The position numbers and the translations under genes are program-made. From NCBI RefSeq assembly GCF_012295525.1, contig NZ_CP051167.1, forward strand, positions 5,685,299 to 5,749,298: 64,000 nt of DNA, in the 5' to 3' direction. Origin of the DNA: Oxynema aestuarii AP17. Its GTDB lineage: Bacteria > Cyanobacteriota > Cyanobacteriia > Cyanobacteriales > Laspinemataceae. This document shows, piece by piece, positions 28,090 to 60,794 of the stretch. The notes under the pieces are model-generated. The model was not told the DNA's origin. It ran no database searches and saw nothing but the letters and a program-made list of their open reading frames with translations. The stretch's first letter is position 1; every line of letters begins with the position of its first letter.

Positions 28090-28164
28090 GGTTTGCCAGA
28101 GGGTCGTCCAGACAAATTTTCCGAGTCGGATAATAGGGGTGGGGGGAAGGGCGAACAGCATGGG

Positions 28165-28213: not shown

Positions 28214-28438
28214 GGGTAACCTTTGCGTTTTCAGGGACTGGTGTCTGGAGTGAAAGTTATCTCGATGTCCGAGCCAGGGGTAAACTAAGGATGATGCCAA
28301 CCCTGGATCTCCCGCCCGTCTTTGGCCTGCTGAGTTCTCAACGGCTGCCTTCAAAAATGGTACGATTGCCTTCCGAGCAAATTTTGCCGCGTTAGTGCTG
28401 CTCAGTTCGACCATTTCACGCCAAATCGTAATACATCT

Positions 28439-29629
28439 ATGAAATTCGTTTGCAAGCAAAGCGACCTAGGAACTAATCTGTCATTGGTGAGCCGGGCGGT
28501 ACCGTCTCGACCGACGCATCCGGTACTGGCGAACGTGCTGTTAAGTGCGGACGAAGAGAAGCAGGAAGTCAGTTTGACGGCGTTTGATTTAAGCTTGGGT
28601 ATCAAGACCACGTTTGAGGCTCAGGTGGAAACCGAAGGGACGATCGCCCTTCCGGCAAAACTCTTTAACGATATTGTATCCCGCTTGCCGGAGGGAGAAA
28701 TTTTGTTCGATGACGAAGCGAAAGACACGGCAGAAACGTCATCGGAGAGTGCGGCGATCGCCACCCTAACCTGTGCGACGGGACGCTATCAAGTCCGGGG
28801 GATGAGTGCGGATGAATTTCCGTCGTTACCGACGATTCAAGAGGGACAAAGCCTCGAAATCGCTATTGACGTTCTCATGGAAGGATTGCGCGGTTCGCTG
28901 TTCGCGACCAGTGGCGACGAAACGAAGCAAATTCTCACGGGAGTTCATGTTAAGGTTCACCCGGAAACGTTCGAGTTTGCGGCGACGGACGGCCATCGTT
29001 TGGCGGTGACGGAAACGGCGAGCCATCCGGAAGCGGAGGGGGAAGAAGAGGCGCCCAAACCGTCGGAACCGCGAGAATTTTTTGAAATGACGATTCCGGC
29101 CCGGGCGTTGCGCGAACTGGAACGGATGGCGGCGATGGGGGGTAAAGGAGAGGCGATCGCCCTGTCGTTGGATCCCGGTCAAATTGCCTTCGAGTTGTCG
29201 AACCAACGGCTGACGAGTCGCACTCTCGAAGGTCAATATCCCAATTACGGACAGTTGATTCCCCGGTCTTTCGAGCGCCAAATTACCGTAGAACGGCGTA
29301 AATTGCTCTCGGCGTTAGAACGGATCTCGATTTTGGCGGATAAAAAAAATAATATCGTCAAATTCTCGATCGATAGCGAAGGGCAGAAATTACGCTTGTC
29401 TGTGGAAGCGGCGGATGTCGGCAGTGGGGAAGAAGCTCTCGACGCTCAGATTTCTGGGGAGAGTTTGGACATTGCATTTAATGTTAAATATGCAATGGAA
29501 TCGTTAAAAAATCTCGGGTCCCAGGAAGTTCAAGTCAAATTGAATACGGCGACTTCTCCGGTCGTCCTGACGCCGTTAGGGGGAACGAAAATGACTCATT
29601 TATTAATGCCCGTACAGTTGCGCTCTTGA
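28439..29629 (+). CDS. dnaN: DNA polymerase III subunit beta (sliding clamp)
   Basis: N-terminus MKFVCKQSDLGTNLSLVSRAV...HPVLANVLL. Three-domain ~390-aa architecture. C-terminal ...VVLTPLGG...LLMPVQLR. Confidence 0.9.
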   Translation: MKFVCKQSDLGTNLSLVSRAVPSRPTHPVLANVLLSADEEKQEVSLTAFDLSLGIKTTFEAQVETEGTIALPAKLFNDIVSRLPEGEILFDDEAKDTAETSSESAAIATLTCATGRYQVRGMSADEFPSLPTIQEGQSLEIAIDVLMEGLRGSLFATSGDETKQILTGVHVKVHPETFEFAATDGHRLAVTETASHPEAEGEEEAPKPSEPREFFEMTIPARALRELERMAAMGGKGEAIALSLDPGQIAFELSNQRLTSRTLEGQYPNYGQLIPRSFERQITVERRKLLSALERISILADKKNNIVKFSIDSEGQKLRLSVEAADVGSGEEALDAQISGESLDIAFNVKYAMESLKNLGSQEVQVKLNTATSPVVLTPLGGTKMTHLLMPVQLRS

Positions 29630-29661: not shown

Positions 29662-31296
29662 ATGGATGTGCAGCTAGCTAAAAAAAAGTTAAGAGGGGGA
29701 GTCAGATGGGTCGTCGCATCGGGGGTGCTGACCCTGGTTTGCGGTGGGGGTTGGTGGCTGTATGCGAGCAATTTCGGCGCTCGATCGCAGGCGATCGCGG
29801 TGCGGGCGATCGATGTGGAGCTCGGGACCATCGAGAAAAAAATTGACGAGAGTGGAATTGTCGAATTTGGCAACCAACAAACCCTCAAATCGCCCACGGA
29901 TGCGACGGTAGACACCCTCTGGGTGGAGGTCGGCGATCGCGTCGATCTCGGTAGCGAACTGCTGCGCTTGCGCGATTCCCAGCAACAGTTGGGGCTTAAC
30001 GAACACCAACTGAAAATCCGCCAGCAAGAACTGACCCTCGCTTACCACCGCGATCGCCTCCAAAACGCCCGTCTGGCGGTGGAGGCTGCCGAAACTGACC
30101 TCGCCGCTAAAATCGCCCAAACGACCCGTAGCGAGCAAATTCAACTGGAAGCCAAAGCCCTCGAAATTGAAAAACAACAACTGACCGTCGCCAATACCCA
30201 GGCAAAAATCGAAACGGCCCAGGGACAACTCGACGCGGCGCGCCAAGAACTCGAAGAAGTCGAAGCCCTCGTCGAAAAAGGCTATATTCCCAGCAACGAA
30301 TTGCGCGCCGCCCAAGATGAAATTCGTAATGGTCAAGACCAATTGCGCGAGGCTGAATTGGACTTTGCGATCGCCCAATTAGAGTTGAAAAATCTGCAAC
30401 TCGATCGCCAACGTCTCCAGCAAGAACGACAAGACAAACTCGCCCAACAAGAGAGCGAAATCCGGCAGGCGCGATCGGCCCTACGCGAAGCTCAAGCAAC
30501 CCTCGCCAACGTTGAGAATGAGGTTCGCACTGCCGACATCGAACTCGAAAATCTCGAACTCGAACGCCAACGACTCGCCAAAGAACTACAAGCGAATATC
30601 GTCACTTCCCCCATCTTCGGTACCGTCCTCGACCTGTTCGTTAAACCCGGCGATGGCGTCGAACGCGGCAAAGATTTACTCGTCCTCGGCGACCCCAGTC
30701 GCGAAGTGGTCAAACTGCAACTGTCTACCCTCAACGCCAAACAAGTTGAAGTCAACCAAGCCGCGCGCGTCAGCCTCATCGGACCCAATCCGAAAACTTT
30801 TGAGGGTCGCGTTCGCAGCTTGTCCCCCCTCGCCAGTACCTCCGCCACGGACTCCTCCGGTCGTCAGTCCGGTCAAGCCACGATCGCCGCCATCGTCGAA
30901 CTCGATCGCCCCAGCAATTTTCTCATTCCCGGGAGTCAAGTCAGCGTCGAGATTATTTTACAACGTCGTGAAGAGGTCGTCGTTTTACAAATGGAAGCGA
31001 TTCAGCGCGACGACCGAGAGCCCTATGTTTGGGTGCGCGCCGATGACGGAACCGCCCAAAAACAAGCGATCGCCCTCGGACTGGAAGGGATTGTCGAAGT
31101 CGAAGTCACCGAAGGCTTAAAACCGGGCGATCGGGTGATTTTACCTCCCGTAGATGTCCCCCTACAACCGGGAATTCCAGTGATTGAAGAAGACGAACAA
31201 GGTCAAGAGTCGGCGATCGAACGGCCAAACATAAAGAGTAAAAGGCAAAAGGCAAAACGCAAAAGGCAAAAGATAGACGAAGTTTTGATGTCTTGA
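29662..31296 (+). CDS. HlyD-family membrane fusion protein / periplasmic adaptor subunit (DevB-like)
   Basis: N-terminal TM, then a long coiled coil (repeated Q/E/L heptads) and C-terminal beta-barrel/lipoyl-like segments. ATG 29662 is preferred over the track start 29626. Confidence 0.8.
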   Translation: MDVQLAKKKLRGGVRWVVASGVLTLVCGGGWWLYASNFGARSQAIAVRAIDVELGTIEKKIDESGIVEFGNQQTLKSPTDATVDTLWVEVGDRVDLGSELLRLRDSQQQLGLNEHQLKIRQQELTLAYHRDRLQNARLAVEAAETDLAAKIAQTTRSEQIQLEAKALEIEKQQLTVANTQAKIETAQGQLDAARQELEEVEALVEKGYIPSNELRAAQDEIRNGQDQLREAELDFAIAQLELKNLQLDRQRLQQERQDKLAQQESEIRQARSALREAQATLANVENEVRTADIELENLELERQRLAKELQANIVTSPIFGTVLDLFVKPGDGVERGKDLLVLGDPSREVVKLQLSTLNAKQVEVNQAARVSLIGPNPKTFEGRVRSLSPLASTSATDSSGRQSGQATIAAIVELDRPSNFLIPGSQVSVEIILQRREEVVVLQMEAIQRDDREPYVWVRADDGTAQKQAIALGLEGIVEVEVTEGLKPGDRVILPPVDVPLQPGIPVIEEDEQGQESAIERPNIKSKRQKAKRKRQKIDEVLMS

Positions 31297-31371: not shown

Positions 31372-31410
31372 ACTCTAAACTCTAAGATCTAAAATGTAAC
31401 ATCTAAAATC
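31372..31410. repeat. STRR-like heptamer tract (CTAAACT/ATCTAAA) in inverse orientation to the 28165-28213 tract
   Basis: Seen in sequence: CACTCTAAACTCTAAGATCTAAAATGTAACATCTAAAATCC. It is the reverse complement of TTTAGAG/TTTAGAT units. Confidence 0.6.
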
Positions 31411-44240: not shown

Positions 44241-47200
44241 ATGTTCTTTTCTCTTGACGGCTACCAAGTCCTCGAATTAGTTTCTGAAACTGCAGCCTCG
44301 AAAGTTTATCGAGGCATCCGAGAAGACGATCGCACCCCAGTCGTCCTTAAACTTCTCAACAGCGAATATCCCACCCCCATTCAGTTAAAACGATATCGAC
44401 GAGAATATGAAATCCAAAAGAAATTAACCGGGGAAAAGATTTGTCAGGCGATCGCGCTTGAAGAATATAAAAACACCCTGATATTAATTTCTGAAGATGC
44501 AGGCATCTGTTTAAAACATCTCCTCAAGCGAGAACCGTTAACTTTGACGGAAAAGCTCGAAATAGCGATCCAAATTTGCGAGGCATTAGCGGAGGTCCAT
44601 CGAGCTAATATTATTCATAAAGACATCAATCCTTTTAATATCGTTGTCAATTCTGAAACTCGCAAAGTAAAGCTGATTGATTTCGGGATTGCAACTGCTT
44701 TAACCCGAGAACATCCCACCCTCAAGAATCCTACAATTTTAGAAGGAACGTTACCTTATATTTCTCCCGAACAAACCGGGCGGATGAATCGATCTTTAGA
44801 CTATCGTAGCGATTTTTATTCCTTCGGGATCGCCTTATACGAAATGTTTTCGGGACGAGTTCCTTTTGAGAGTGACGATGCGTTAGAGTTGGTTCACTGT
44901 CATATTGCTAAACCGCCGACCCCTTTAGATCGCCTAGATTGGGGGGACTCTGGTGATTTTCCCCAACCCTTGAGCGAGATCGTCATGAAATTGCTCGCGA
45001 AAAATGCGGAAGAACGGTATAAAAGTGCGTGGGGAATTCAAGCAGATTTAGCAGAATGTTTGGAACAACTCAAGGCGACCAATAGGGTTCGACCATTTGC
45101 TTTAGGGAAAAAAGATATTTCCGATCGCTTTGAAATTCCCCAAAAGCTTTATGGGAGAGAAAAAGAACTAGAAAGGTTATTAAAAGCTTTTTTTGATGTA
45201 GCTTCCACGCCAGAAGAACGGGGCGATCGCCAATCGGCTCGAACGAAATTGATTGTTGTTGAAGGATATTCTGGGGTAGGTAAATCTTGTTTAGTCTTAC
45301 AACTTTATAAACCCATTACTCGCCGTCGCGGTTATTTTATTTCGGGAAAATTCGATCAATTTCAGCGCAATATTCCCTATTCGGCGGTCGTTAGTGCTTT
45401 TCAGCAATTAGTCCGACAGTTGTTAACAGAAAGTGAAGCAGAATTAAAACGCTGGCGAGATAAAATACTGGCGGCGATCGCCCCCAACGCTCAAGTGATT
45501 GTCGATGTTCTTCCCGATATTGAAAAAATTATTGGTAAGCAGCCCCCAGTCGCCGAAGTGGGGGCGTCAGAAGCCCAAAATCGGTTTAATTTAGTCTTTC
45601 AAAACTTCATTCGGGCATTTTGCGATCGCGACCATCCCCTGACTATTTTTCTCGACGATTTACAATGGGCCGATTTAGCCAGTCTCAAATTGATCGAGTT
45701 AATGATGAGCGACGATCGTACCGAATATTTATTACCGATTGTTTCGTATCGAGAAAATGAAGTCGATGCTACACATCCGGCGATCGTTACCATTGAAAAA
45801 CTGCGTCAACAAGGGATTGAAATCGAGCAGATAGCCTTACAACCTTTGGATAAAGGCGCGATCGCTCAATTAGTAGCCGACACCTTACAGCATCCTGTTG
45901 AAAGAGTAGAAAGCTTAGCAAAATTACTGTTGCAAAAAACGGAAGGAAATCCATTTTTTGTCAATCAGTTTTTACAAACATTATATACAGAAGGCGCTAT
46001 TTTTCTAGATCTCCAGACTCATCAATGGCAGTGGGATGTTGCCGAGATCGAGCGCATGGATATTGCCGAAAATGTCGTTGAATTAACGGTAAAAAATTTA
46101 AAAAAATTACCCGAACTCACTCAAAAAGTTCTCCATCTTGGTGCTTGTCTCGGGTCGGAGTTTGATTTAGATACTCTGGCTACGATCGATCGCCAATCGA
46201 CTCAAGAACTCTTCAATCTCTTACTTCCTGCCGTAGAATCGGGTAGTGTTTTAACCCACAGCGATCGCGAAGAACGTCCCCGTCAAATCTATCAATTTGC
46301 TCACGATCGCATTCAACAAGTCGCCTACAATTCCTTTGAGGAAAACTACACGAAAAATATTCACTTGCAAATCGGTCGTTTTCTCTTGGAAGAAACCCCT
46401 CAAGAGAGTTTGCATGAAAATATTTTCGCGATCGCCGATCATTTTAATTTTGCTAAAGAACGAGTTATCGATTGTAACGAAATTGAAATGATAGCGAAAC
46501 TGAACTTGATGGCTGGAGAAAAGGCGATCGCCTCGACGGCTTATCCTGCAGCTTTAAATTATTGTCAAAAGGCGATCGATTGTCTGAGTGATTCTTGCTG
46601 GGAAGCACAATACGATCTGACCCTAACACTTTATACGAAACTCACCAAGGCGGCATTCTTATGCGGTCAGTTTGACAACGTAGAAAAATTTGCACGCATA
46701 GTTATCGATAACGCCAAGAATCCCTTCGATACCGTGCAAGTGTACTACATTAAAATTGAAACAGGAATGGCTCAAAATCAACTACAAAAAGCCATTCAAA
46801 TTGGTTTGAGCATTCTCAAAAAATTGGGAGTTGATTTTGGAGAAAATCTCGAAGCCATTGACGTGACTCAAAGTCTCGAAAATATTAACCGTCGATTGGC
46901 AAATATCGAACCCGAAAGCCTGCTCGATTTGCCGATCTTAGAAGATCCCCAACAATTGGGAATTCTGGAAATTCTCACTATTGTATCTCCTTGTTCTTTT
47001 ATTACAGCTCCTCAATTATTTATTGCCATCATTTGTAAGCAAATTGAAATTTACTTAGTCGCGGGAAATGCTATAAGTTTCGCTCCCACCACTTACGCAT
47101 TTTATGGATCGATTTGCTGTGGAATTCTGGGGGATGTAGAACGGGGTTATCAATTTGGTAAGCTGGCTATCAATTTAATTGATAAGTTTCACTTAGAAGC

Positions 47201-50096
47201 ACAACGAGCTAAAGTTGCAGTCATTTTTAATGCCACAACGGCTCACTGGAAAGATTCAGTCCAATCGAGCATTCAATCTTTGGTTGAAGCTTACAATATC
47301 GGACAACAAACCGGGGATTTACAATTTGCCGCCCATGGTTTGTATAATGCAGAGTTAGCGGCTTATATGAGTGGATCGCCTTTGCCGGAGTTGCTGGAAC
47401 GGATGGATCGCACGAACAAAATTATGGTTCAACTGCGGCAAAAAACTTTATTAAATTATCATTCAATTCACCATCAATCGATTCTCAATTTACTGGGAAA
47501 TGCTAAAGAAGAAAACCCAGAAGATAACAATACTCCACCCTGGATGTTACTCGGTTCGACGTATGACGAGCGAGAAAAGTTTAGCCTGCACGAGCAAGCC
47601 AAAGATTTGACGGGATTAGTCCATTTTTATTTAGCAAAAACCTTTCTGTTTTATTTATTTGAACAATTCGATCGCGCCCGTGAATTTGCGGAAAGGGGGC
47701 GTCAATCTTTAAGTGGGGTGACCGGACTGCTTTGCGGTTCCGTTTTTCAGTTTTACGAGGTTTTAGCCTATCTCGCATTTTACCCCCAAGCTTCGCCCGC
47801 CGACGGTCCCAGTTTACTCCAAAAAGTCGATGAAGCTCTGGCTAACTTTAAACGCTGGGGAGAACATGCGCCGTCAAATTACTTGCATAAATATTATCTC
47901 ATTAAAGCAGAAAAATATCGCGCGATCGGCGATCCGCTCAAGGCGATGGAAGCTTTCGATCGCGCGATCGAAATTGCGCGAAAATGCGCCTACTTGCACG
48001 AAGAGGCGATCGCCTACGAACGGGCCGCTCATTTCTATCTCGAATTGGGACGAGAAATGATTGCAAAAACTTACTTTTCTCAAGCTTATTATACCTATTT
48101 ACGCTGGGGAGCGATCGCCAAAGTACGAGATTTAGAAAGTCGCTATTCTCAATTTATCGCTCAAACTTCTACAAGTTCGACCCGTACTGTATCGACAAAA
48201 ACGAGCGTTCATACCTCTACCAGTACTGGATCGGGAAGCTCCCTCGATTTGGCGACAGTGATGAAAGCCTCTCAAGCTATTTCTGGAGAGATTCTCCTCG
48301 ATCGCCTCCTCGAACAATTGATGACAATTGTGATGGAAAATGCAGGAGCGCAACGGGGTTATTTAATCTTAGAAAGAAACGAAAAATTCTTTATTGAAGG
48401 GCGCGCCGAACTCGACTCCGTAACTGTTTTAGAATCTCTTTCTTTCGACGATCGCCTACCCATTTCTGTTATTAATTACGTCATTCGGACTCATGAAATA
48501 GTTGTAAAAACAAATGCATTTGAAGCCGGACAGTTCACCAACGATCCCTATATTCAAACTCATCAAACTCAGTCGATGTTATGCGCGCCCTTGCTCGATC
48601 GCGGACAGTTGACCGGGTTAATTTATCTGGAAAACAACTTAACTCCCGGCGCTTTTACCCCAGAACGCATCGAACTGTTACAACTACTTTCCGGACAGGC
48701 GGCGATCGCGATTGCCAATGCCAAACTGTACCAACAAGTCCGCGACAACCAACAACAACTTACCCAGTTTCTCGAAGCGATTCCCGTCGGTATTTTTATT
48801 AGCAATTCCCGAGGTCAATCCTACTATGCCAACCGCATCGCTCAAGAATTAATGGGGCGGGGAATTGCGCCGGAAGCTTCTTTAGAAGAATGGCCCGACG
48901 TCTATCAAATTTATTTAGCCGATAGCAATGCCAAATGCTCTATAGAAAATCTGCCGATCGCCAAAGCTTTAAGTGGCAAAACAATTAAAGTTGACGATTT
49001 AGAAATTGCTCATCAAAATCGACGAGTTCCTATTGAAGTTTTAGCAACGCCAATCTACGACGAACGGGGAAATTTAAACTACGCGATCGCCGCTTTTCAA
49101 GATATTAGCGAACGCAAACAAGCCGAAAAATTACTCGCCGAATACAATCGGACTCTCGAACGACAAGTCGCCGAACGCACCCAAGAACTACAACAAACTC
49201 TCGAATACTTGCAAGCGACCCAACAAGAGTTAATTCAATCGGAAAAAATGGCGGCTTTAGGCCAACTCGTTGCGGGAGTAGCTCACGAAATCAATACCCC
49301 CCTCGGTGCGATTCGTTCTAGTGCGGGCAATATGGGTAAATTCCTCAATCAAAGCCTCGAAGATTTACCCGGAATTTTACAATCCCTTTCTTCAGAAGAA
49401 ACTCGTGAATTCCTCAATTTGCTACGTCGTTCGTTGGAACAAGAAAATACACTTTCTGCACGAGAAGAACGCAAAATCCGCCGCAGTTTAATCCGCGAAC
49501 TCGATGCAGAAAATATCGAAAACAGTACCCACTTAGCCGATACCCTTGTCGATATGGGAATTTACGATAATATCGGCGAACTTTTACCCTTATTTCGACG
49601 GGAAAACAGCGATAAAATTGTCGATCTGGCCTACAAGCTTTCCGGGCTGCAAAAAAGTACGGCTCGTATCGAAATGGCGACGGAACGCGCCTCAAAAGTC
49701 GTGTTTGCACTAAAAACCTACGCTCGTTACGATAGTAGTGGGGAAAAAACGACGGCCAGCTTGAGCGAAAGCATCGAAACGGTTTTGACGTTATATCACA
49801 ACCAACTCAAACATGGAGTCGAAGTCATCCGCAATTACCAAGATCTGCCGCCGATTTGGTGTTATCCGGACGAACTCAATCAAGTCTGGACGAATCTCAT
49901 TCACAATGCTTTGCAAGCGATGAATTATCGAGGTCGATTATGGCTGACGATTGCTCGCTGCGGCGGCGAAGCGAAAGTTTCGATTACAGATAACGGTTGT
50001 GGGATTCCTGCGGAGGTCTTGCCGAAAATTTTCAATCCTTTTTTCACGACCAAACCCGCAGGAGAGGGGAAGCGGTTTGGGACTCGATATCGTTAA
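44241..50096 (+). CDS. HstK-type hybrid sensor: Ser/Thr-kinase-like domain - P-loop STAND/AAA ATPase - TPR-like helical region - GAF - PAS - HisKA - HATPase_c; 3' end frameshifted
   Basis: Kinase subdomains ([20 protein letters not shown]). Walker [12 protein letters not shown] ([16 protein letters not shown]...[18 protein letters not shown]). PAS. H-box [21 protein letters not shown]1 boxes. A 1-nt insertion near 50068-50072 stops the frame at 50096; the remaining G2 box and C-terminus continue in the +1 frame to 50196. Confidence 0.8.
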
Positions 50097-50425
50097 CAAA
50101 ATTGTGCAGAAACATTCAGGTACAATTGAAGTGGAAAGCGAACCGGGTCGCACCAGTTTCCACATTTCTCTGCCGTTACAGATAGATAAAGGGTGAGAGC
50201 GACGATTGCCTAAAAGCGATCGCCTAATTCTAAGGCAGGCATTCTATAATTTTGCTTATACTTCTGACTTGAAGATTACCTTAAGTCGGTACTTGACCCG
50301 GCGCGTGCTTGAAGCTTTATCAATTTTATCCGGTTATTCTCCCAAATGATTTGAGAGATCGATCTACTCCCCCGTCCTGTCACTGTCTCGACGAACCCCC
50401 GTATTGAATAAGGAGACTTCTGCTC

Positions 50426-53400
50426 GTGTTGGTTCTTGAAGGTTATCAGATTCTCGAAAAAATTTGTGAAAGTGTTGCATCTACGGTCTACCGAGGCATC
50501 CGAAAAACCGATCGCCGCCGCGTTATTTTAAAAGTTCTCAATAGTGAATATCCTACCCCAATTCAACTCAAGCGATATGAAAGAGAATATGAAATACTCC
50601 AACTCTTTGATACGGCATCAGTTTGCCAAGCTCTCGGTTTACAAGCCTATGAAAATACCCTCGTCCTCATTATGGAAGATGTGGGAATTTCACTCAAAGA
50701 ACTTATCAAAACATCCCCATTAACTTTAGACGATCGCCTCAGATTAGCGATTCAAGCGTGCGAGGCGATCGGACAGATCCACGCGGTTCACGTCATTCAT
50801 AAAGATATCAATTCTTCCAACCTTGCTGTCAATCCGGAAACCGGAGAATTGAAGGCGATCGATTTCGGTTTGGCGACGGTTTTAACTCAAGAACATCCGA
50901 TCCTTAAAAATCCTTCCATTTTAGAAGGAACTTTAACTTATATTTCCCCCGAACAAACCGGACGGATGAATCGCTCTCTAGACTATCGCAGCGATTTTTA
51001 TTCTCTGGGCGTCACCTTTTACGAACTGTTTTCGGGACGAGTTCCTTTTGAGAGTGGCGATGCTTTAGAGTTGGTTCACTGTCATATTGCTAAAACGCCG
51101 AAACCGTTGTGCGAACTAGATGCGATCGCCGATGGCAAACCGATCCCCGAAGCTATTTCTAAGATCGTGATGAAACTGCTGGCAAAAAATGCAGAAGAAC
51201 GCTATCAAAGTGCTTGGGGGATTAAAGCCGATCTCGAACGCTGTGCGGCGCAATTGCAAGAAAACGGATCGATCGAACCCTTTTCCATCGGTCAATTTGA
51301 CTTATCCGATCGCTTCCATATTCCGCAAAAACTTTACGGTCGGCAAGTTCAAATTCAACAATTACTAGATACTTTTGAGCGAGTTGCAACTCCGAATAAT
51401 TTTCAAGCTCATATTACCTTTATCACCGGATATTCTGGAATTGGTAAATCCGCCCTCGTCGCCGAACTCTACAAGCCAATTACCGCGCGACGGGGCTATT
51501 TTATTACGGGTAAATTCGACCAATTTCAACGCAACATTCCCTATTCGGCAGTCGTACACGCCTTCAAACAGTTGGTGAAATACCTGTTAACTGAAAGTGA
51601 AGGACAGTTATCTCAATGGCGCCAAAAATTACTGACAGCGTTGGGAACGAACGCGCAACTCATCGTCGATGCGATTCCCGAACTCGAAACAATTATTGGC
51701 CCACAGCCGCCCGTTCCCGATCTGGAGCCGTCCGAAGCCCAAAATCGCTTTAATTTTGTCTTTCAACATTTCATTCGGGTGTTTTGTTCTCCGGAACATC
51801 CGTTAACGATCTTTCTCGATGATTTGCAATGGGCCGATTCGGCGAGTTTGCACGCGATCGAGTTGATGTTGTCCGATCTCGAAACACGACATCTATTTAT
51901 TATCGGTGCCTATCGCCATCAAGAAGTGGGGGCGACTCATCCACTGCGGACGACTTTAGAAACTCTGGAAAAAGAAGGGGTTCCGATCGCCAATATTCAT
52001 CTCAAATCGTTGAAGTTAAATCAAATCGCCCAACTGATTGCCGATACTTTACACGACGATGCCGAAGCGGTCAGACCGTTAGCGAAATTGACCTTACAAA
52101 AAACCGGGGGGAATCCCTTTTTTGTCAGTCAATTTTTGAAAACGTTACACGAAAAAGGGGCGATCGCTTTCGATTGCGATCGCCACAGTTGGCAGTGGGA
52201 TCTCAAGCAGATTCAACAGACCAAAATTGCCGATAATATTGTCGAACTCACCCTCGAAAACCTCAAAAAATTGCCGCCGCTTACCCAAGACTTGCTCAAA
52301 ATGGCCGCTTGTCTCGGTTCTAGCTTCCAAACCCAAACCCTGGCGCTGGTGAGCGATCGCCCGGAAGCGGAGATCGGACGGGAGTTGATGAGTGCGGTCC
52401 GTTCGGGGGCGATCGCCACCACGTGCGAATTCGACGATCGCGGCTACATTCGCGAGTATCAATTCACTCACGATCGCGTGCAGCAAGCAGCTTATGCCTC
52501 GATCGCCCCTCGGGAACGTGCGGCCATGCATTTGAAAATCGGGCGGTCTTTGTGGCAGCATACGGACAATTTAGCCGAAAATCTGTTTAAAATCGTCGAT
52601 TGTCTCGATTTTGGCGTCGATTCGATTCACGATCGCCACGAACGGGAACGGGTGGCGGAACTCAACGCGATCGCCGGAGAGAAAGCCAAAGCCGCCAATG
52701 CTTACGCCGCCGCGATCGGCTATTTTAACGTGGGACTGCAATTACTCAGTACCGATGCCTGGGAGCAATCTTACGATCTCACCTTGCGACTCTACCGCGA
52801 AGCTGCCGAAGTCGCCTATTTAGCCGGAGACTACGATCGCCTCGAAGAATTGGCGGACATCGTCTGCGATCGCGCTCGCACCTTGCTCGATCGCATTAAA
52901 GTATATGAAGTGCAAATCGAAGCCTATAAAGCCCGAGGTCAAAACCGCGAGGCGATCGCGATCGCCCGTCCCCTCCTCCAGCAATTGGGTTTCGACCTTC
53001 CCGAAGCGCCGACTCCGGAACAAATCGGTGACGTTCTCGAAACCACGGCTCGATGCTGGCGCGATCGCGGCGTCGAGAGCTTACTAGACCTACCGCCGAT
53101 GCGCGACCCGGAACATCTCGCCGTTATGAGGATCGCCAACCGCCTGTTTGCCCCCATTTTTATCACCGTTCCCACCCTATTACCCGTGCTGGTGGGCAAA
53201 CAAGTTCAGCTCTCGATCGCCCACGGCAATGCACCATCTTCGTGCTACGCCTACGTCAATTACGGCTTAATTTTGTGCGGAATCGTCGGTGAGATCGAGA
53301 TCGGCTATCAATTCGGTCAGTTAGCGCTCAAATCGATCGACCCTCCCAATATGGCACAATATACCGCTCAAGTGCGCGGCCCCTTCCACGCGGGGATCGC

Positions 53401-56326
53401 GATCGGCAAAGAGCATTTAAAAGACTCCCTCGCCCCCCTGCGTGCCGCCTACCAAAAAGGGTTGGAGTTTGGGGACTTGTATTATGCAACTACCTGCGCT
53501 TTTGTATACAGTCTCCACGGCCTTTTTTCCGGGGTCGAACTCGATCTCCTCGACTCACAAATCGCCGCCTATCGCGACGCGATCGCCCAACTGCAACAAA
53601 CCACGACTTTAATTTATACATCGATTTACCACCAAACCCTTTTAAACTTAGTCCATCCGAGCGAAACCCCCTGGAAGTTCTGCGGCGATGCTTTCGACGA
53701 AGGCCAGCAATTAGCCGCCATTGTTGAAACGAACGATCGCTATGCCCTTTGCGCGTTCTACATCCATAAACTCTTCCTCGCTTACTTGCTCGACGGCTCG
53801 ACTGACTTGAGCGAGCTACTCGAAAACAGCGCCGAATATTTAGACGGAGCCACCGGAACCCTGTTAGTGCGCCTGTTCCATTTTTACGGCGCTTTAACTC
53901 GTTTAAAACTCTATCCATCGGCAACAGAACAACAACGACAAGTACACCTCGAAGCCGTCGAATTGTCCTGTCAAAAATTACAAAATTGGGCTAAATTTGC
54001 GCCGATGAACTACGCCCATAAATATCATCTCGTCGTGGCGGAACGGGCGCGAGTTTTGGGAGAAAAAATCGAGGCGATCGAACATTACGATCGCGCGATC
54101 GAACTGGCGCGCCAACATCAATATCTCAACGAAGAAGCCCTCGCCAACGAACGAGCCGCCCTCTTTTATCAAGGGTGGGGTAAAGCGAAAATTGCCCGGG
54201 TCTATCTCGCCGAAGCTTACTATGCCTATCAACGTTGGGGCGCGATCGCCAAAGTCAAGCAATTAGAACGACAGTATCCCGACTGGATCGATTCGTCAAC
54301 GGGGATAGCACCTCGCCTCGGCGTCAACACGACCACGACCCACCATTCCACCGCCACCGAATCGATTAAAGCATTAGATTTCGCCACCTTTATGAAAGCC
54401 TCTCAAGCCATTTCCGGCGAAATCATTTTAGAAAAACTACTCGTCGAACTATTAAAAATTCTCCTGGAAAATGCCGGGGCGCAAGTCGGCTATTTAATTT
54501 TAGAAACTGACGGGGAACTGCTCGTACAAGCGCGCGGGGAACGAGAAGGGGAAGATATCGCCGTTTTGGAAGCGTTACCGTTGGGCGATCGCCTGCCTCA
54601 ATCGGTAATTAACTACGTCGTTCGCACCAAAGAAACGATCGTCAAAACGAATGCGACTCGGGAAGGAAAATTTACCAACGATCCGTACATCCAAACCCAT
54701 CAAATCCAGTCGATGCTGTGTGCGCCCTTGCTCGATCGCGGGCAGTTAACTGGGTTAATTTATCTGGAAAATAACTTAACCCCCGGCGCTTTTACCCCGG
54801 AACGAGTCGAACTGTTGCAATTACTATCTTCCCAGGCGGCGATCGCGATCTCCAACGCCAAACTGTACCAACAAGTGCGCCAAAATCAACAACAACTCAC
54901 CCAATTTCTCGAAGCGATTCCCGTCGGCGTTTTCGTCGTCACCGCCCAAGGAGAACCCTTTTACGCCAACCGACGCGCCCAAGAAATCCTCGGACAGGGA
55001 ATTATTCCCCAAACCCAAAGCGATCGCCTCGGGGAGGTCTATCAAACTTACGTCGCCGGAACCGATCGCCTCTATCCCAACGAACGCAATGTCGTCCTAC
55101 GCGCCTTGAAAGGAGAAACCGCCACCATAGACGACGCCGAAATTCACCAACACGGGAAAATTATCCCCATCGAAGCCTCCTGCACCCCGATTTACGACGG
55201 CGACGGTAAAATTGTCTACGCGATCGCCGCGTTTCAAGATATCACCCAGCGCAAACAAGCGGAACAATTACTCGCCGAGTACAACCGCACCCTGGAACAG
55301 CAAGTCGCCGAACGCACTCAAGAATTACAGCAAACCCTCGAATATCTGCAAGCCACTCAGCAAGAACTGATTCAATCGGAAAAAATGGCCGCTTTAGGCC
55401 AACTCGTCGCCGGAGTCGCCCACGAAATCAATACGCCCCTGGGCGCCATTCGCTCCAGTGCGGGCAATATGGCCAAATTTCTCAATCAAAGCTTGGAAGA
55501 ACTACCCGGGATCTTCCAATCCCTCTCCCCGGAACAAACCCGGGAATTCCTGGATCTGTTGAGTCGTTCCCTGCAACAAGAAAACACCTTGTCCGCCCGC
55601 GAAGAACGCAAACGGCGGCGCGCCTTAGTCGGCGAACTCGACGCACGATCCATCGAAAATAGTACCCATCTCGCCGATACCCTCGTGGATATGGGGATTT
55701 ACGAGAATATCGACGAATTTTTCCCGTTATTTGAACGTCCCGACAGTCCCCACATCGTCGATCTCGCCTACAAACTGTCCGGACTGCAAAAAAGTACGAC
55801 CCGCATCGAAATGGCGACGGAACGCGCCTCGAAAGTGGTGTTTGCGCTCAAAACCTACGCCCGTTACGACAGCAGTGGCGAAAAAATGGCCACGGATTTG
55901 AGTGAAAGTATCGAAACGGTTTTGACCTTATATCACAACCAGATCAAACACGGGGTCGAAGTCGTCCGCGATTACGAAACTTTGCCCCCCATTCCGTGTT
56001 ATCCGGACGAACTCAATCAAGTTTGGACGAATTTGGTTCATAACGCCTTACAGGCGATGGACTATCGCGGTACTCTGACCGTGGCGATCGCCCGGGACGG
56101 CGATCGGGCCAAAATTACCATTGGCGATAGCGGACCGGGAATTCCCGAGGAGGTCTTACCGAAAATCTTCAATCCCTTTTTCACGACCAAACCCCCCGGC
56201 GAGGGTAGCGGTTTGGGACTCGATATCGTCAATAAGATCGTGCAGAAGCATTCCGGTAAGATTGAAGTGGAAACTCGACCGGGTTCGACCTGTTTTCATG
56301 TTTTTCTTCCTTTAGAGCCGCATTAG
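50426..56326 (+). CDS. HstK-type hybrid sensor, intact paralogue (Ser/Thr-kinase-like - STAND ATPase - helical - GAF - PAS - HisKA - HATPase_c)
   Basis: Same architecture as the upstream gene. Complete G2 box [31 protein letters not shown] lies 9 nt before GTG 50426. Confidence 0.85.
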   Translation: MLVLEGYQILEKICESVASTVYRGIRKTDRRRVILKVLNSEYPTPIQLKRYEREYEILQLFDTASVCQALGLQAYENTLVLIMEDVGISLKELIKTSPLTLDDRLRLAIQACEAIGQIHAVHVIHKDINSSNLAVNPETGELKAIDFGLATVLTQEHPILKNPSILEGTLTYISPEQTGRMNRSLDYRSDFYSLGVTFYELFSGRVPFESGDALELVHCHIAKTPKPLCELDAIADGKPIPEAISKIVMKLLAKNAEERYQSAWGIKADLERCAAQLQENGSIEPFSIGQFDLSDRFHIPQKLYGRQVQIQQLLDTFERVATPNNFQAHITFITGYSGIGKSALVAELYKPITARRGYFITGKFDQFQRNIPYSAVVHAFKQLVKYLLTESEGQLSQWRQKLLTALGTNAQLIVDAIPELETIIGPQPPVPDLEPSEAQNRFNFVFQHFIRVFCSPEHPLTIFLDDLQWADSASLHAIELMLSDLETRHLFIIGAYRHQEVGATHPLRTTLETLEKEGVPIANIHLKSLKLNQIAQLIADTLHDDAEAVRPLAKLTLQKTGGNPFFVSQFLKTLHEKGAIAFDCDRHSWQWDLKQIQQTKIADNIVELTLENLKKLPPLTQDLLKMAACLGSSFQTQTLALVSDRPEAEIGRELMSAVRSGAIATTCEFDDRGYIREYQFTHDRVQQAAYASIAPRERAAMHLKIGRSLWQHTDNLAENLFKIVDCLDFGVDSIHDRHERERVAELNAIAGEKAKAANAYAAAIGYFNVGLQLLSTDAWEQSYDLTLRLYREAAEVAYLAGDYDRLEELADIVCDRARTLLDRIKVYEVQIEAYKARGQNREAIAIARPLLQQLGFDLPEAPTPEQIGDVLETTARCWRDRGVESLLDLPPMRDPEHLAVMRIANRLFAPIFITVPTLLPVLVGKQVQLSIAHGNAPSSCYAYVNYGLILCGIVGEIEIGYQFGQLALKSIDPPNMAQYTAQVRGPFHAGIAIGKEHLKDSLAPLRAAYQKGLEFGDLYYATTCAFVYSLHGLFSGVELDLLDSQIAAYRDAIAQLQQTTTLIYTSIYHQTLLNLVHPSETPWKFCGDAFDEGQQLAAIVETNDRYALCAFYIHKLFLAYLLDGSTDLSELLENSAEYLDGATGTLLVRLFHFYGALTRLKLYPSATEQQRQVHLEAVELSCQKLQNWAKFAPMNYAHKYHLVVAERARVLGEKIEAIEHYDRAIELARQHQYLNEEALANERAALFYQGWGKAKIARVYLAEAYYAYQRWGAIAKVKQLERQYPDWIDSSTGIAPRLGVNTTTTHHSTATESIKALDFATFMKASQAISGEIILEKLLVELLKILLENAGAQVGYLILETDGELLVQARGEREGEDIAVLEALPLGDRLPQSVINYVVRTKETIVKTNATREGKFTNDPYIQTHQIQSMLCAPLLDRGQLTGLIYLENNLTPGAFTPERVELLQLLSSQAAIAISNAKLYQQVRQNQQQLTQFLEAIPVGVFVVTAQGEPFYANRRAQEILGQGIIPQTQSDRLGEVYQTYVAGTDRLYPNERNVVLRALKGETATIDDAEIHQHGKIIPIEASCTPIYDGDGKIVYAIAAFQDITQRKQAEQLLAEYNRTLEQQVAERTQELQQTLEYLQATQQELIQSEKMAALGQLVAGVAHEINTPLGAIRSSAGNMAKFLNQSLEELPGIFQSLSPEQTREFLDLLSRSLQQENTLSAREERKRRRALVGELDARSIENSTHLADTLVDMGIYENIDEFFPLFERPDSPHIVDLAYKLSGLQKSTTRIEMATERASKVVFALKTYARYDSSGEKMATDLSESIETVLTLYHNQIKHGVEVVRDYETLPPIPCYPDELNQVWTNLVHNALQAMDYRGTLTVAIARDGDRAKITIGDSGPGIPEEVLPKIFNPFFTTKPPGEGSGLGLDIVNKIVQKHSGKIEVETRPGSTCFHVFLPLEPH

Positions 56327-56346: not shown

Positions 56347-56742
56347 ATGTCAAAACCCGTTATTTTATGTGTCGATGACGAAAAAGTTGTGTTAGACAGT
56401 CTCAAAAGCCAACTCAAGCAAGCCTTCGGAGATAAGTATTTTTACGAAATGGCCGAAGATGGAGCCGACGCCCTCGACGCGATCCAAGAACTCATGGAAG
56501 ATAGCATCCCGATTGTCATGATTGTTTCCGATTGGCTGATGCCGGGAATGAAAGGAGATGAGTTGTTAATTCGCATTCACCAACAATATCCGAACATCGT
56601 TAAAATCATGCTCACGGGTCAAGCCGAACCCTCGGCGATCGAACGAGCGAAACAAGAAGCCAATTTAAGTTTTTGTTTGCACAAGCCTTGGTCTGAAGAG
56701 GAATTAGTAACGGCAATTCAAGCTAGTTTAGCAAAGTTATGA
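56347..56742 (+). CDS. Single-domain response regulator (CheY-like receiver)
   Basis: VILCVDDE...IVSDWLMPGMKG...KIMLTGQ...HKPW receiver motifs. SD GGAGG lies 8 nt before ATG 56347. Starts 21 nt after the HstK stop. Confidence 0.8.
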   Translation: MSKPVILCVDDEKVVLDSLKSQLKQAFGDKYFYEMAEDGADALDAIQELMEDSIPIVMIVSDWLMPGMKGDELLIRIHQQYPNIVKIMLTGQAEPSAIERAKQEANLSFCLHKPWSEEELVTAIQASLAKL

Positions 56743-58517
56743 CGAAACAAGTCATTGTTTGTGTCGATGACGAACCGACAGTGTTGAGAAGCTTAAAAGC
56801 CGAACTCAAAGAAGCCGTCGGTGCCGATTATTTAATTGAAATTGCCGAAGGAGGCGAAGATGCGTTGGAGTTGGTTGAGGAATTACTCGAAGATGGTTAT
56901 GAAATTCCCCTAATCGTTTCCGATCATATCATGCCGGATATTAAAGGAGACGAACTGTTAAAAAGAGTTCACGAAATTTCTCCATCTACGTTGAAAATTA
57001 TGCTCACGGGTCAAGCCAGTATCGAAGCCGTGGGCAATGCCATTCAATATGCCCGCCTCTATCGTTATATTGCTAAACCTTGGCAGGCAGAAGATTTAAA
57101 ACTGACGGTCAAAGAAGCGATTAATAGTTATTTTCAAGAAAAGAAATTAGCCGAACAAAACGTCCAACTCCAAAAAATGAACGAAGAGTTGGAACAGTTA
57201 AACCGAGAACAGGCGGCGTTAATTGCCAAGTTACACGAAAAGGAAAATCGCCTGACCCAGTTTTTAGAGGCGATGCCCGTTGGCGTGTTTGTGGTCGATC
57301 GCGATGGCCAGCCTTATTATATTAACTCTCGCGCCCAACAACTGCTCGGACGGGGGGTGGAGTCTAATACAGTTTTAAGTGAAATTCGCTCGATTTATCA
57401 GGTCTATTTGGCCGGAACGGAGCAATTATACCCCGAACAGAGCGATCCGTTATTGCAAACCTTGCGGGGGAAGAGTATGACCGTGGATGATATGGAAATT
57501 CACCACGGCGATCGCGCGATCCCCATTGAAGTTTGGGGAACGCCGATTTACGACGATGAAGGTCAAATTGCTTACGGGATTGTCGCCTTTAACGATATCA
57601 GCGATCGCAAGAAAGCCGAAGCAGAACGGCAGCAGTTTATTCAAGAACTTTTTGAACTCAATACCAACTTAGAACTGGCGTTAGATTCCGAACTCAAATT
57701 GACCGACGCCGCCAGTCGCTTCGTCCCGAACGAGTTTCTTTCGTTTCTCGGTTACGAAAGTATTGCCGAAGTCAAATTAGGCGATAGCATAGAACAAGAA
57801 ATGTCCGTGTTTTTCTCCGATATTCGCGACTTTACTACCCTATCGGAGACGATGACGCCGGAAGATAACTTTAAATTTATTAATGCGTATTTATCGAGAA
57901 TGGAACCCGCGATCGTCGATAATCAGGGGTTTATTGATAAGTTTATCGGCGATGCGATTATGGCCTTGTTTGGCGGGGAAGCCGACAATGCAGTGAAAGC
58001 GGGCATTTCGATGCTGCATTGCTTACACGATTATAACGAACATCGCGATCGCTCCGGCTATTTACCCATTTCTATCGGCATCGGTATTAATACCGGACGC
58101 TTGATGCTCGGAACCGTCGGCGGATCGTTAAGAATGGACGGTACTGTGATTAGCGATGCGGTTAATTTGGCTTCGCGACTGGAAGGGTTAACCAAAAATT
58201 ACGGCGTCTCTTTACTGATTTCTCATCATACCTATTCTCGCTTACATAACGCCGACGATTATGCAATTCGCCTGATCGATCGCGTCAAAGTCAAAGGCAA
58301 ATCGGAAAGCGTCACGGTCTACGAAGTTTTTGATGCCGACTTGCCGAAATTAAAAGCTGGAAAACTCGCCAGTCTCGATCGCTTTGCTAAAGCGTTGGAT
58401 CTCTACAATCGCCACGTCTATCGCGAAGCTGCGGACCTCTTTCAAGCCTGTTTGGAACTCGAACCCGGCGATACGGTCGCGCAGATCTATCATAACCGAG
58501 CTTGCGATCGCCTTTAA
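56739..58517 (+). CDS. Response regulator with receiver - coiled coil - PAS - class III adenylate/guanylate cyclase domain
   Basis: REC (VIVCVDDE...VSDHIMPDIKG). The PAS region is homologous to the HstK PAS region (LTQFLEAMPVGVFVV...). Cyclase motifs FSDIRDFTTLSE, KFIGDAIMALFG, NLASRLEGLTK. ATGA overlap with the upstream REC gene. Confidence 0.85.
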   Translation: MTKQVIVCVDDEPTVLRSLKAELKEAVGADYLIEIAEGGEDALELVEELLEDGYEIPLIVSDHIMPDIKGDELLKRVHEISPSTLKIMLTGQASIEAVGNAIQYARLYRYIAKPWQAEDLKLTVKEAINSYFQEKKLAEQNVQLQKMNEELEQLNREQAALIAKLHEKENRLTQFLEAMPVGVFVVDRDGQPYYINSRAQQLLGRGVESNTVLSEIRSIYQVYLAGTEQLYPEQSDPLLQTLRGKSMTVDDMEIHHGDRAIPIEVWGTPIYDDEGQIAYGIVAFNDISDRKKAEAERQQFIQELFELNTNLELALDSELKLTDAASRFVPNEFLSFLGYESIAEVKLGDSIEQEMSVFFSDIRDFTTLSETMTPEDNFKFINAYLSRMEPAIVDNQGFIDKFIGDAIMALFGGEADNAVKAGISMLHCLHDYNEHRDRSGYLPISIGIGINTGRLMLGTVGGSLRMDGTVISDAVNLASRLEGLTKNYGVSLLISHHTYSRLHNADDYAIRLIDRVKVKGKSESVTVYEVFDADLPKLKAGKLASLDRFAKALDLYNRHVYREAADLFQACLELEPGDTVAQIYHNRACDRL

Positions 58518-58619
58518 AGCCCTGTTTTTATCGATCCGATCCCCCCGCCGTTGACCGACACTCGACATGCGTACTCGGGACGACGTTCGCGGTGGTGCTT
58601 CCCTCTACTTCTCGCAAGT

Positions 58620-58875
58620 TCTGCTAAATTGTGGAAAACTTGCCTACGGACGTTGAAAGGCTGTGGAAAACTTGGGGAAAGGTTGGGGAAAACTCGGGGA
58701 AAATGCAAGATTTCCCACGGGCGTTCGCCTAGGGTCTCCAAGGGAGAATAGGTTCACATCTCCCCTCGGATAGCAAAAATCGGGGGTTTTCCACAGGTTT
58801 TCCACAGGTGCTGGGACAGGCGATCGCCCCAACTCGGGGAAAGATCGGTGATTTTCCACAAGTTCCACCAGGAAG
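58620..58875. repeat. Intergenic repeat cluster: 2 direct and 3 inverted copies of TGTGGAAAAC(TTG), plus repeated (A)CTCGGGGAAA units
   Basis: Seen in sequence. TGTGGAAAAC at ~58628 and ~58660. GTTTTCCACAGG at ~58788 and ~58800. ATTTTCCACAAG at ~58851. Confidence 0.7.
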
Positions 58876-58939
58876 GATCCCGGGAAGCATCGGTTTCTAA
58901 AAACCCTAGTGGTGGCGCCTCCAGCACGCGATCGTGCTT

Positions 58940-59524
58940 TCAGACAGGCGATCGTCGTTGGTCGAGGATCTTCATCCAGTTCTCGATTCCCTTGCGCGTC
59001 GGCTGACCCGTGGCGGTAAACGTCCACAGATCTTGTTTGGATTGGGAACTATAACTCACGTGGATCGGGCGATCGCTCCCGTAGAAATAGAGAGAATCAA
59101 ACGGTAATTGCGCTTCTAGTATCCAATCGACCACGCGATCGCTCCCCACATTGAGAATGCGAAAGTCGCAGGCGGCCCCCAACCGGGGACAGTAATAAGC
59201 GCCGTTGCGATTGCGTTCGCAGGCCATGTGTTGGTCGAGACGGGGCGCCACGCGCCCGTTTTTTTTACCTGTTTCCGGGTCTTTTCGTTCTAAAAACCGT
59301 TTTAAATCTTTAGAACAAAAACCGTAAGTCAGTTGAAAGTTCTCGAACCCAAACTGTTCGATGGTCGGATCGAGAATTCGCTCGTTTAAAGCGATTAAAG
59401 CGGGTAACGTTTCTTCGAGATTTTCGGGATAAGGATTGATGCGATCGCGATATTTTTGATAAGTTTGGCTGCAGGTGCAAAAGGTTTCTAAGGTCAAATA
59501 TTTGAACGAATAGGAAACGCTCAT
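58940..59524 (-). CDS. Hypothetical Cys-containing protein
   Basis: ORF with coherent composition. Cys at CTCS, HMACERN, YYCPRLGAACDF. No family recognised. Confidence 0.4.
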   Translation of the reverse strand: MSVSYSFKYLTLETFCTCSQTYQKYRDRINPYPENLEETLPALIALNERILDPTIEQFGFENFQLTYGFCSKDLKRFLERKDPETGKKNGRVAPRLDQHMACERNRNGAYYCPRLGAACDFRILNVGSDRVVDWILEAQLPFDSLYFYGSDRPIHVSYSSQSKQDLWTFTATGQPTRKGIENWMKILDQRRSPV

Positions 59525-59720
59525 CGGCTACATCTTTCGGCTGAATAGATCGAGTCGATCCCCTCCAAACCTATAGAAAAAAGGGAGGTTTTGCAGGGGC
59601 TTTGCCCTTATTCTCCTAAAGTCCCCCTGATTAAGGGGGATTTAGGGGCATCTTCCCTCATCAGATTGAGAAACGCGCGATCGCGCGATCGCTGAATCGG
59701 GGAATCGAGCAGAAAGCGCT

Positions 59721-60794
59721 TTACTCGTCAATTTGCCACGGTTCGGCGGTAAAGCCTTCGTCCAAGATTCTTTTCGGACGCAGGACGAGAATTAACTGAC
59801 CGAGTAAGCGAGTTTCCGGTTGGGTTTCAAACCACTGTAATTCTAATTGACCGTTTTGTTCGATTAAAAAATAAGCGTCGTCTCGCCACTGGCGCTGGCG
59901 GCGATCGACGATCGCTAGTGTACGTTCGACTTTTCCCGGTAAGGGGTTCGGAAGGCGATCGCTCGCACAGGCGATCGCGACGGGATCTTCGGCTTTGAGA
60001 ATGACTTGCCATCCCGGAATCGAGACCCAGGCGGCGTTTCCGCTCGATTTAACGATTCCGAACGGTCCGATCTCTTCGAGAATCGGCACCGCTTTAAGAT
60101 CCTCGGCGGTTAACGGAAATTCGCCGACTACGGGGATCGTGCGCGGGAGTTCGTCGGAAGACTCCAGGCGGAACAGGGGCAGACGGGGGGCGCTGCGGCT
60201 TTTAACGACGGTGAAATCGGTGAGCAAATCTTGCAATTTTTGGCGGGCGCCCTCGGTTTCGGCGTAGTTCAAGCCTTTGGCAATCAGGCGCGATCGCTCC
60301 TGTAGGTCGGACTTCTGGCGGGCGTGTTTCCAGCATTGATAGGCGATCGCCTCCCCGGGTCCGGGACCGAAACCGTCGGGAAATTCGGAAAATCGCGAGT
60401 ATTCTTTGAGCGCTTTGGCAATTTCGTGGGCGTCGTCGGCGTTGAATTGGTGTTTGAGGATAAAATCCGCCGCCGCCGCGCGATCGTCTTGGGTCAGGAT
60501 CCGCAGTTCGTAGAGAATATCGCTGGCTTTCTGTTGAAAATAGGCTCGGGTGGCGTCGGCGGCGCCTCCGGCAACGATCGAGGCGTAGACTTGGGCGCCG
60601 ACAAGAATTTGATTTTGCTGGATCGGCTCGAATCCAGTTTCTTCAAAAATCTGTTGGGGACTGTAGCCCGCTTTTTGCAAGGTTTGACAGTGTTGCGCCC
60701 ACTCCACCCAGGTTCCCTCTTTGCGACGCAGAGCTTGGAATAGAGGGTCGGGAGCGATTTCGGCGGTGGGTTGTTCGGGGGGTGTGTTCGTCAT
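59721..60794 (-). CDS. raf1: RuBisCO accumulation factor 1
   Basis: N-terminal block LFQALRRKEGTWVEWAQHCQTLQKAGYSPQQIFEETGFEPIQQNQI is the hallmark of the cyanobacterial Raf1 alpha-domain. ~355 aa. Confidence 0.8.
   Translation of the reverse strand: MTNTPPEQPTAEIAPDPLFQALRRKEGTWVEWAQHCQTLQKAGYSPQQIFEETGFEPIQQNQILVGAQVYASIVAGGAADATRAYFQQKASDILYELRILTQDDRAAAADFILKHQFNADDAHEIAKALKEYSRFSEFPDGFGPGPGEAIAYQCWKHARQKSDLQERSRLIAKGLNYAETEGARQKLQDLLTDFTVVKSRSAPRLPLFRLESSDELPRTIPVVGEFPLTAEDLKAVPILEEIGPFGIVKSSGNAAWVSIPGWQVILKAEDPVAIACASDRLPNPLPGKVERTLAIVDRRQRQWRDDAYFLIEQNGQLELQWFETQPETRLLGQLILVLRPKRILDEGFTAEPWQIDE

Follow-up and report, generated by a model that had tools for sequence, protein, structure and literature searches.

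We analysed 64,000 nucleotides of DNA from Oxynema aestuarii AP17 (the whole of this stretch is called the window below) and examined a repeat array that sits in a 422-bp spacer between the 3' ends of two convergent genes. HIP1 repeats (GCGATCGC) and Raf1 mark the DNA as cyanobacterial, and core genes lie on either side of the array (raf1 and nusA-infB). The locus is chromosomal, since a 6.31-Mb JGI contig codes for an identical Raf1. The first-pass annotation had placed the array 3' of a cyclase operon and before the next gene. The former is correct, while the array is not upstream of the latter, which converges on it (3' end at 58940). A promoter and terminator scan returned two weak promoter-like matches and no terminator in the array region, and ARAGORN found no tRNA and no tmRNA. 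The features of the locus are as follows.

28439..29629, + strand: dnaN (beta clamp), from a Pfam scan of all large ORFs; 29 kb from the array
56739..58517, + strand: response-regulator-PAS-adenylate/guanylate cyclase gene, left neighbour, 3' end toward the array
58518..58629, no strand: left flank, GC-rich, no boxes, differing between strains; mosaic at 58545-58612
58630..58638, - strand: DnaA box L1, a perfect TTTTCCACA that reads TGTGGAAAA on the + strand; isolated, the next box being 23 bp off
58662..58703, - strand: four head-to-tail DnaA boxes with 2-bp spacers, 11-bp period
58662, - strand: first of the four, TTTTCCACA, 0 mismatches
58673, - strand: second, CTTTCCCCA, 2 mismatches
58684, - strand: third, TTTTCCCCA, 1 mismatch
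58695, - strand: fourth, TTTTCCCCG, 2 mismatches
58704..58786, no strand: central spacer between the opposed arrays, not AT-rich
58711-58719, + strand: doubtful 2-mismatch box in the central spacer
58787..58806, + strand: tandem pair of perfect boxes TTTTCCACAggTTTTCCACA (starts 58787 and 58798), 11-bp period; position 0/+11 of the origin plan
58852-58860, + strand: perfect box, 0 mismatches; position +65
58861-58869, + strand: degenerate box abutting the 58852 box, AGTTCCACC, 3 mismatches; position +74
58870..58939, + strand: right flank, without GC spacer, CTACTACTA DnaA-trios or AT-rich DNA-unwinding element (DUE); ~43% A+T by a by-eye count
58940..59524, - strand: conserved cyanobacterial 194-aa protein, right neighbour, 3' end toward the array; no Pfam match

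The repeated motif is a DnaA box: TGTGGAAAA is the reverse complement of TTTTCCACA, the species-specific cyanobacterial DnaA box (PMC4674748; PMC3480399). The dense direct and inverted repeats seen in the first-pass annotation are real, with two direct and three inverted copies, the third inverted copy (ATTTTCCACA) being exact in its 9-nt core. Specifically, the + strand has exact TGTGGAAAAC at 58630-58639 and 58662-58671, and the - strand has it at 58786-58795 and 58797-58806; with one mismatch, it recurs at 58684 (+) and 58851 (-). The interleaved, reiterated CTCGGGGAAA units are real as well and correspond to weaker DnaA boxes (TTTTCCCCA/G) at an 11-bp spacing; AACTCGGGGAAA lies at 58691 and 58831, and its variant AACTTGGGGAAA at 58669 (family D3). 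Tandem Repeats Finder delimited period-11 arrays at 58665-58703 and 58785-58809. Overall, nine boxes fall within 240 bp, five of them perfect and four degenerate relative to TTTTCCACA, and they form two opposed, helically phased groups, with - strand boxes to the left, + strand boxes to the right and a within-group period of 11 bp (9-mer plus 2-bp spacer). That the array consists of protein-binding sites was thus rightly suspected, in the form of DnaA boxes but not of palindromic half-sites for a dimer: the sites are single 9-mers, and well-matched opposed boxes have starts at least 92 bp apart (the nearest being 58695 versus 58787), the doubtful 2-mismatch box at 58711 being the one exception at shorter range.

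This density is confined to the array. All five exact copies of the 9-mer (TTTTCCACA/TGTGGAAAA) in the 64-kb window lie inside 231 bp (58630-58860), against an expectation of 0.83 per 64-kb window, and none of 100 shuffles (0/100) gave five. A weighted box score in 300-bp windows reached 25 at the array and 7 at the next best place in the 64-kb window, and the array is the only DnaA-box cluster within these 64 kb of a ~6.3 Mb chromosome.

DnaA-box clusters of this kind are best known from origins next to dnaN. The experimentally mapped origin of Synechococcus elongatus PCC 7942 lies upstream of dnaN and holds 11 boxes, 7 of them TTTTCCACA, a DnaA-binding assay bore out the boxes predicted in Anabaena PCC 7120, and in vitro work with DnaA domain IV validated the origin of Cyanothece 51142 (PMC4674748; PMC3480399). 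Across 68 cyanobacteria, TTTTCCACA dominates the predicted origins and dnaN adjoins oriC in 55/68 (PMC4674748; PMC3480399), origins away from dnaN having already been reported in 13/68 (PMC4674748). Among the relatives that we compared, Laspinema olomoucense, Crinalium epipsammum PCC 9333 and Planktothricoides have dnaA next to dnaN, with a TTTTCCACA cluster in the spacer between the two genes. These origins share details with the window. The variant box TTTTCCCCA is found in all three; the flank AAATTGTGGAAAAC of box L1 is common to Laspinema, which likewise has the tandem pair on the + strand as well as phased TGGGGAAAA/CGGGGAAAA boxes. In Planktothricoides, the L1 flank TGTGGAAAACTTGC accompanies boxes on the - strand; these are followed by a 24-mer at the tandem pair (GTTTTCCACAGGTTTTCCACAGGT) that is identical to the window, a third perfect box 55 bp past the second, and a degenerate box abutting the third. 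Crinalium repeats the 11-bp and 55-bp spacings of the window, and the 0/+11/+65/+74 spacing is common to the window, Crinalium and Planktothricoides.

To extend this comparison, JGI metagenome contigs were scanned for TTTTCCACA-NN-TTTTCCACA-N40-50-TTTTCCACA, which gave at least 120 stretches; 80 loci were analysed, and dnaN was sought around them by tblastn with the window's DnaN. At 31 of the 80, dnaN lies on the same strand and starts 52-441 bp downstream of the third box. Restricting the count to the 65 of 80 loci that are informative, i.e., have at least 600 bp of sequence on the dnaN side, dnaN was just downstream in 29/65, and in 21/27 of those with HIP1 GCGATCGC. Most dnaN-adjacent metagenome loci also have dnaA upstream. 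Their - strand boxes stand at about -112, -91, -80, -48 and -18 and their + strand boxes at 0, +11, +65 and +74, compared with -157, -125, -114, -103 and -92 and the same 0, +11, +65 and +74 in the window. Given this match in layout, the array is an oriC-type DnaA-box cluster whose right side would normally face dnaN. Seven loci with the same three-box spacing (L028, L033, L035, L042, L092, L094 and L097) lie on contigs with a GC content of 0.27-0.29 and no HIP1, so that the spacing is not confined to cyanobacteria; there, the 3' end of dnaA lies on the opposite strand ~0.5 kb downstream of the boxes. In searches with genes from around the array, relatives found with Raf1 reach 53-59% identity only and have no box cluster near their raf1, and around homologues of the 194-aa ORF, in Phormidium and on one JGI contig, synteny is broken and no cluster is present.

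Judged by its sequence, then, the array is almost certainly homologous to the DnaA-box clusters of cyanobacterial oriC, with which it shares the TTTTCCACA consensus, a cluster of 5-9 boxes and the two-array 0/+11/+65/+74 plan. The central spacer is longer than in those origins, with the nearest - strand box at -92 and not -18. The plan also resembles that of E. coli oriC, where Left- and Right-DOR, described in 2011 by Rozgaja et al., are reportedly opposed arrays of low-affinity sites 2 bp apart. In both, the arrays are opposed in the same sense (left boxes TGTGG..., right boxes ...CCACA on the same strand, as checked on the sequences), and perfect anchor boxes stand alongside weaker ones with a period of 11 bp. 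An orientation check on the E. coli K-12 oriC placed its 13-mer DUE beyond R1, in the same relative orientation. The two differ at consensus position 3 (TTTTCCACA here versus TTATCCACA), and the array is without 13-mer DUE repeats. We consider it probable that the array serves a chromosomal replication origin of the oriC type as its DnaA-assembly region.

Next, we asked how the array has diverged within the genus. O. aestuarii AP17, with a published genome of 6.37 Mb, has 95.8% ANI to Oxynema sp. CENA135 (O. mangrovii), in which the 194-aa ORF is 94% identical, DnaN 99% identical and synteny complete. The motif is present in the orthologous Oxynema spacers, the array occupying a fixed syntenic site in three Oxynema lineages. 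The window was aligned with three metagenome copies (L001-L003) and CENA135, and the well-matched boxes, L1 included, are identical in 5/5 Oxynema sequences. Between the window and CENA135, 46/421 aligned positions of the whole spacer differ (10.9%), compared with 1.3% at four-fold sites of the cyclase gene and 9.5% at those of raf1, while the eight well-matched boxes differ at 0/72 nucleotides (hypergeometric P = 1e-4 against 46/421 overall). In the four-box group at 58662..58703, no box carries a substitution and the sole nearby change, at 58682, is inside a 2-bp spacer. The ninth, degenerate box at 58861 has one change, 58869 C to A, which makes it AGTTCCACA in CENA135, with 2 mismatches and nearer to consensus. 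Since spacer divergence approximates that of four-fold sites and the boxes are unchanged, the spacer evolves at a nearly neutral rate and the 9-mers are constrained. Box-specific constraint of this kind is the signature of protein-binding sites, and the alignment shows the boxes, not the spacers, as the targets of purifying selection.

Divergence is uneven across the locus. The stretch 58729-58777 is hypervariable, with 14/49 positions differing from CENA135, ~3x the divergence at raf1 four-fold sites; the boxes on both sides are invariant. The cyclase gene (56739-58517, against L016:11027-12805 of CENA135) differs at 4/1779 nt and raf1 at 25/1074 nt, compared with ~11% in the array spacer, a mosaic that suggests recent recombination. 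The window and L001-L003 differ only at 58545-58612, where L001-L003 equal CENA135, and a putative recombination breakpoint or hypervariable patch abuts the array there.

The array lacks the part of an origin that opens the duplex. A basal unwinding system (BUS) with DnaA-trios was reportedly described by Richardson in 2016. It consists of a DnaA-box pair, a GC spacer and DnaA-trios (PMC8287927, Pelliciari 2021) and is needed in vitro for strand separation by S. elongatus DnaA (PMC8287927). In canonical origins the DnaA-trios follow a box pair, whose counterpart here is the pair at 58852/58861. We applied the trio rule of Pelliciari, which takes a box with at most 2 mismatches, a spacer of 0-16 bp and at least 3 NAN trios (3'-GAT-5' type) in the correct orientation. 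The rule was positive in 27/31 dnaN-adjacent loci; in 20 of these the repeats are CTA and the spacer is 12-13. In 20/31 dnaN-adjacent loci, the +65/+74 pair, a short GC spacer, CTACTACTA(CTA) at offset 12-13 and a stretch of 70-87% A+T come one after the other, and the canonical loci have 0.7-0.9 A+T at +20 to +80. A textbook BUS, TTTTCCACA-GTTTCCACA-GCCC-CTACTACTACTA, is found in many metagenome cyanobacterial origins. Many of these (L030-L098) follow a uniform pattern, TTTTCCACA-[G/T]TTTCCACA-GCCC-CTACTACTACTA followed by AT-rich DNA, for example at L039:4355-4470 and L063:2569-2690. A subset of origins is without the module, dnaN-adjacent and orphan ones alike (L055, L057, L034 and L081).

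By the same rule, both strands of the window, of CENA135, of Crinalium and of Planktothricoides came out free of trios, and Laspinema gave a weak match only, on the strand facing away from dnaN. CTACTACTA at up to 1 mismatch was absent near the array and near dnaN. In contrast to most cyanobacterial origins of canonical type, neither CTA trios nor an AT-rich stretch follow the +65/+74 pair. No AT-rich DUE was found: the highest 40-bp A+T in 58400-59050 is 0.62, compared with a window-wide 95th percentile of 0.70, and a duplex-stability profile put the least stable 30-mers inside the flanking genes and not in the array spacer. Loss of the unwinding module seems to be common to Oxynema, Laspinema, Planktothricoides and Crinalium, even where the array lies between dnaA and dnaN, while the lost dnaA/dnaN linkage is, as far as the sequences compared indicate, specific to Oxynema among the genomes examined. 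Because Laspinema, Planktothricoides and Crinalium are without trios and yet keep the array between dnaA and dnaN, trio loss would predate the relocation of the array, and the absence of trios alone is therefore no mark of decommissioning.

The setting of the array also departs from that of other cyanobacterial origins: dnaN is 29 kb off, dnaA is not adjacent, and the array is bordered by convergent 3' ends. No DnaA box at up to 1 mismatch is present in 28162-28438, the spacer that precedes dnaN. Within this spacer, a heptamer tandem array at 28165-28208 (TTTAGAG/TTTAGAT, ~6 copies) is STRR-like, and similar short arrays occur at 31240-31272 (AAAAGGC) and 31374-31410. No dnaA was found in the 64-kb window or in a 10-kb extension by Pfam scan of large ORFs and tblastn, and the Oxynema dnaA was not among the best 120 homologues of Laspinema DnaA. 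The genes to either side, and nusA-infB farther to the right, are read toward the array, the reverse of the co-oriented arrangement that an origin would lead one to expect. Near 56 kb, the cumulative GC skew passes through a local minimum, which is uninformative because the skew tracks gene orientation, and the 64-kb window is far too short for it; cyanobacterial GC skews are irregular in general (PMC7198777).

Other parts of the window have features of their own. Upstream of the response-regulator/cyclase pair, 44241-56326 holds two tandem paralogous giant genes of 1951 and 1966 aa; Pfam assigns Ser/Thr kinase, AAA_16, GAF, PAS and histidine-kinase domains to the 1966-aa gene, to which the scan was limited, and JGI gene calls give the 1951-aa gene a similar domain set. 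At 24001-26000, GC content falls to 0.36 from ~0.50, with an ORF without Pfam match (24921-26270) just downstream of a glycosyltransferase gene (23735-24742), and this low-GC patch possibly represents a cell-envelope island gained by horizontal transfer. Inside a caspase-domain ORF (13317-15539), 13960-14237 carries tandem repeats in coding sequence, with units of 30, 60 and 72 nt.

Overall, on balance we favour the view that the array is still the chromosome's origin, with a non-canonical mode of opening. The chief alternative, tentative but serious, is a decommissioned former oriC that no longer opens DNA and is kept to titrate or regulate DnaA, replication starting elsewhere or without DnaA. 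Such a history would account for the missing unwinding module (trios plus AT-rich DUE), the detachment from both dnaA and dnaN, the transcription that converges on the array from both sides, and boxes that are nevertheless under purifying selection. It also has precedents: several cyanobacteria with DnaA boxes replicate without DnaA, namely Synechocystis 6803, Nostoc 7120 and Synechococcus 7002 (PMC7198777), and non-origin DnaA-box clusters that regulate initiation are known elsewhere, as with the six B. subtilis clusters (DBCs; PMC3245932). Like these and like datA and DARS, the array is a DnaA-box cluster away from dnaA and dnaN and without an unwinding element, whereas the known examples do not have full origin architecture. 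In E. coli, datA and DARS are non-origin loci that titrate or regulate DnaA; we know of no datA-, DARS- or DBC-type locus described in cyanobacteria. Against decommissioning, Laspinema, Planktothricoides and Crinalium are also without trios and still have the array between dnaA and dnaN, no alternative cluster exists within the 64 kb, including upstream of dnaN, and the complete two-array origin plan has been kept. That the array is an orphaned origin, having lost its unwinding module and its dnaA/dnaN linkage and now serving as a datA-like DnaA sink or regulatory locus under selection, is a reading that we regard as rather doubtful.

The other explanations fare far worse. An operator cluster for a CRP/NtcA-family or other dimeric factor, tied to the cyclic-nucleotide operon as the first-pass annotation had speculated, draws on the adjoining cyclase gene and on the TGTG contained in the box, and is very improbable. 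A motif search returned neither palindromic sites nor GTA-N8-TAC in the array; the best CRP-like match, with 2 mismatches, falls at 58743 within the hypervariable spacer and is not conserved, being lost in CENA135. There is no promoter to regulate, because the array lies between two convergent 3' ends, and the same array stands upstream of dnaN in other genera with no cyclase nearby. As for the supposed link to the cyclase, the position 3' of the operon is a coincidence of rearrangement.

Equally improbable is a structured non-coding RNA or 3'-UTR element that folds through the inverted repeats. The minimum free energy of -100.6 kcal/mol (z = -4.0) would favour it, but the opposite strand does nearly as well (z = -3.3), and both strands fold alike, as repeats inverted at the DNA level would lead one to expect. 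An Rfam search of 57500-60000 at E <= 10 gave no family over the array except a chance match to a miRNA model, and neither a terminator nor compensatory changes (covariation) were seen. Across genera, the 9-mer is kept in either orientation while box number and spacing vary, and no helix is kept; the hairpins proposed earlier thus find no place. A miniature inverted-repeat transposable element, or neutral repeat debris, is the least credible reading of all: apart from the inverted-repeat symmetry, the motif search yielded a single array copy and no dispersed 250-bp copies in the 64-kb window, the architecture elsewhere occurs about once per contig and next to dnaN, and the site is fixed and syntenic in the three Oxynema lineages, with boxes conserved while spacers diverge by ~11%. 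The array is neither a MITE nor an RNA nor a cluster of CRP sites. It is a cyanobacterial oriC-type DnaA-box cluster, an element type already known; what sets it apart is its orphan position, 29 kb from dnaN, and the lack of trios and of the usual DNA-unwinding element.

How a retained origin of this kind might work can be sketched from established DnaA biology. DnaA-ATP would bind first to the perfect boxes and then spread cooperatively onto the phased weak boxes, and two oppositely oriented DnaA oligomers would form, as at E. coli oriC. In canonical relatives, the + strand oligomer would extend onto the trios and open the adjacent AT-rich DNA. In Oxynema, a rearrangement would have parted the array from dnaA and dnaN, and the trio route would not be available in recognisable form. 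With neither trios nor an AT-rich module, strand opening would therefore be non-canonical or inefficient, and the DnaA complex most likely would still mark the start of chromosome replication.

Dependence on DnaA and oriC is strict in some cyanobacteria, whereas others, at the far end of the range, do without DnaA, and in most of them GC skew is uninformative. In this context, the array is the likely oriC of the genus Oxynema, whose position an annotation anchored on dnaN or dnaA would miss. In practice the result is of modest use, for origin annotation, marker-frequency baselines and vector design, the underlying concept being established. The survey indicates that the box-pair/GC/CTA-trio module is well conserved in other cyanobacterial origins. 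If the array were instead an orphaned origin, it would offer a snapshot of cyanobacteria drifting away from dependence on DnaA and oriC. An array with selected boxes, without the trio/DUE module and without dnaA/dnaN linkage, constitutes a natural test of whether boxes alone are enough for initiation.
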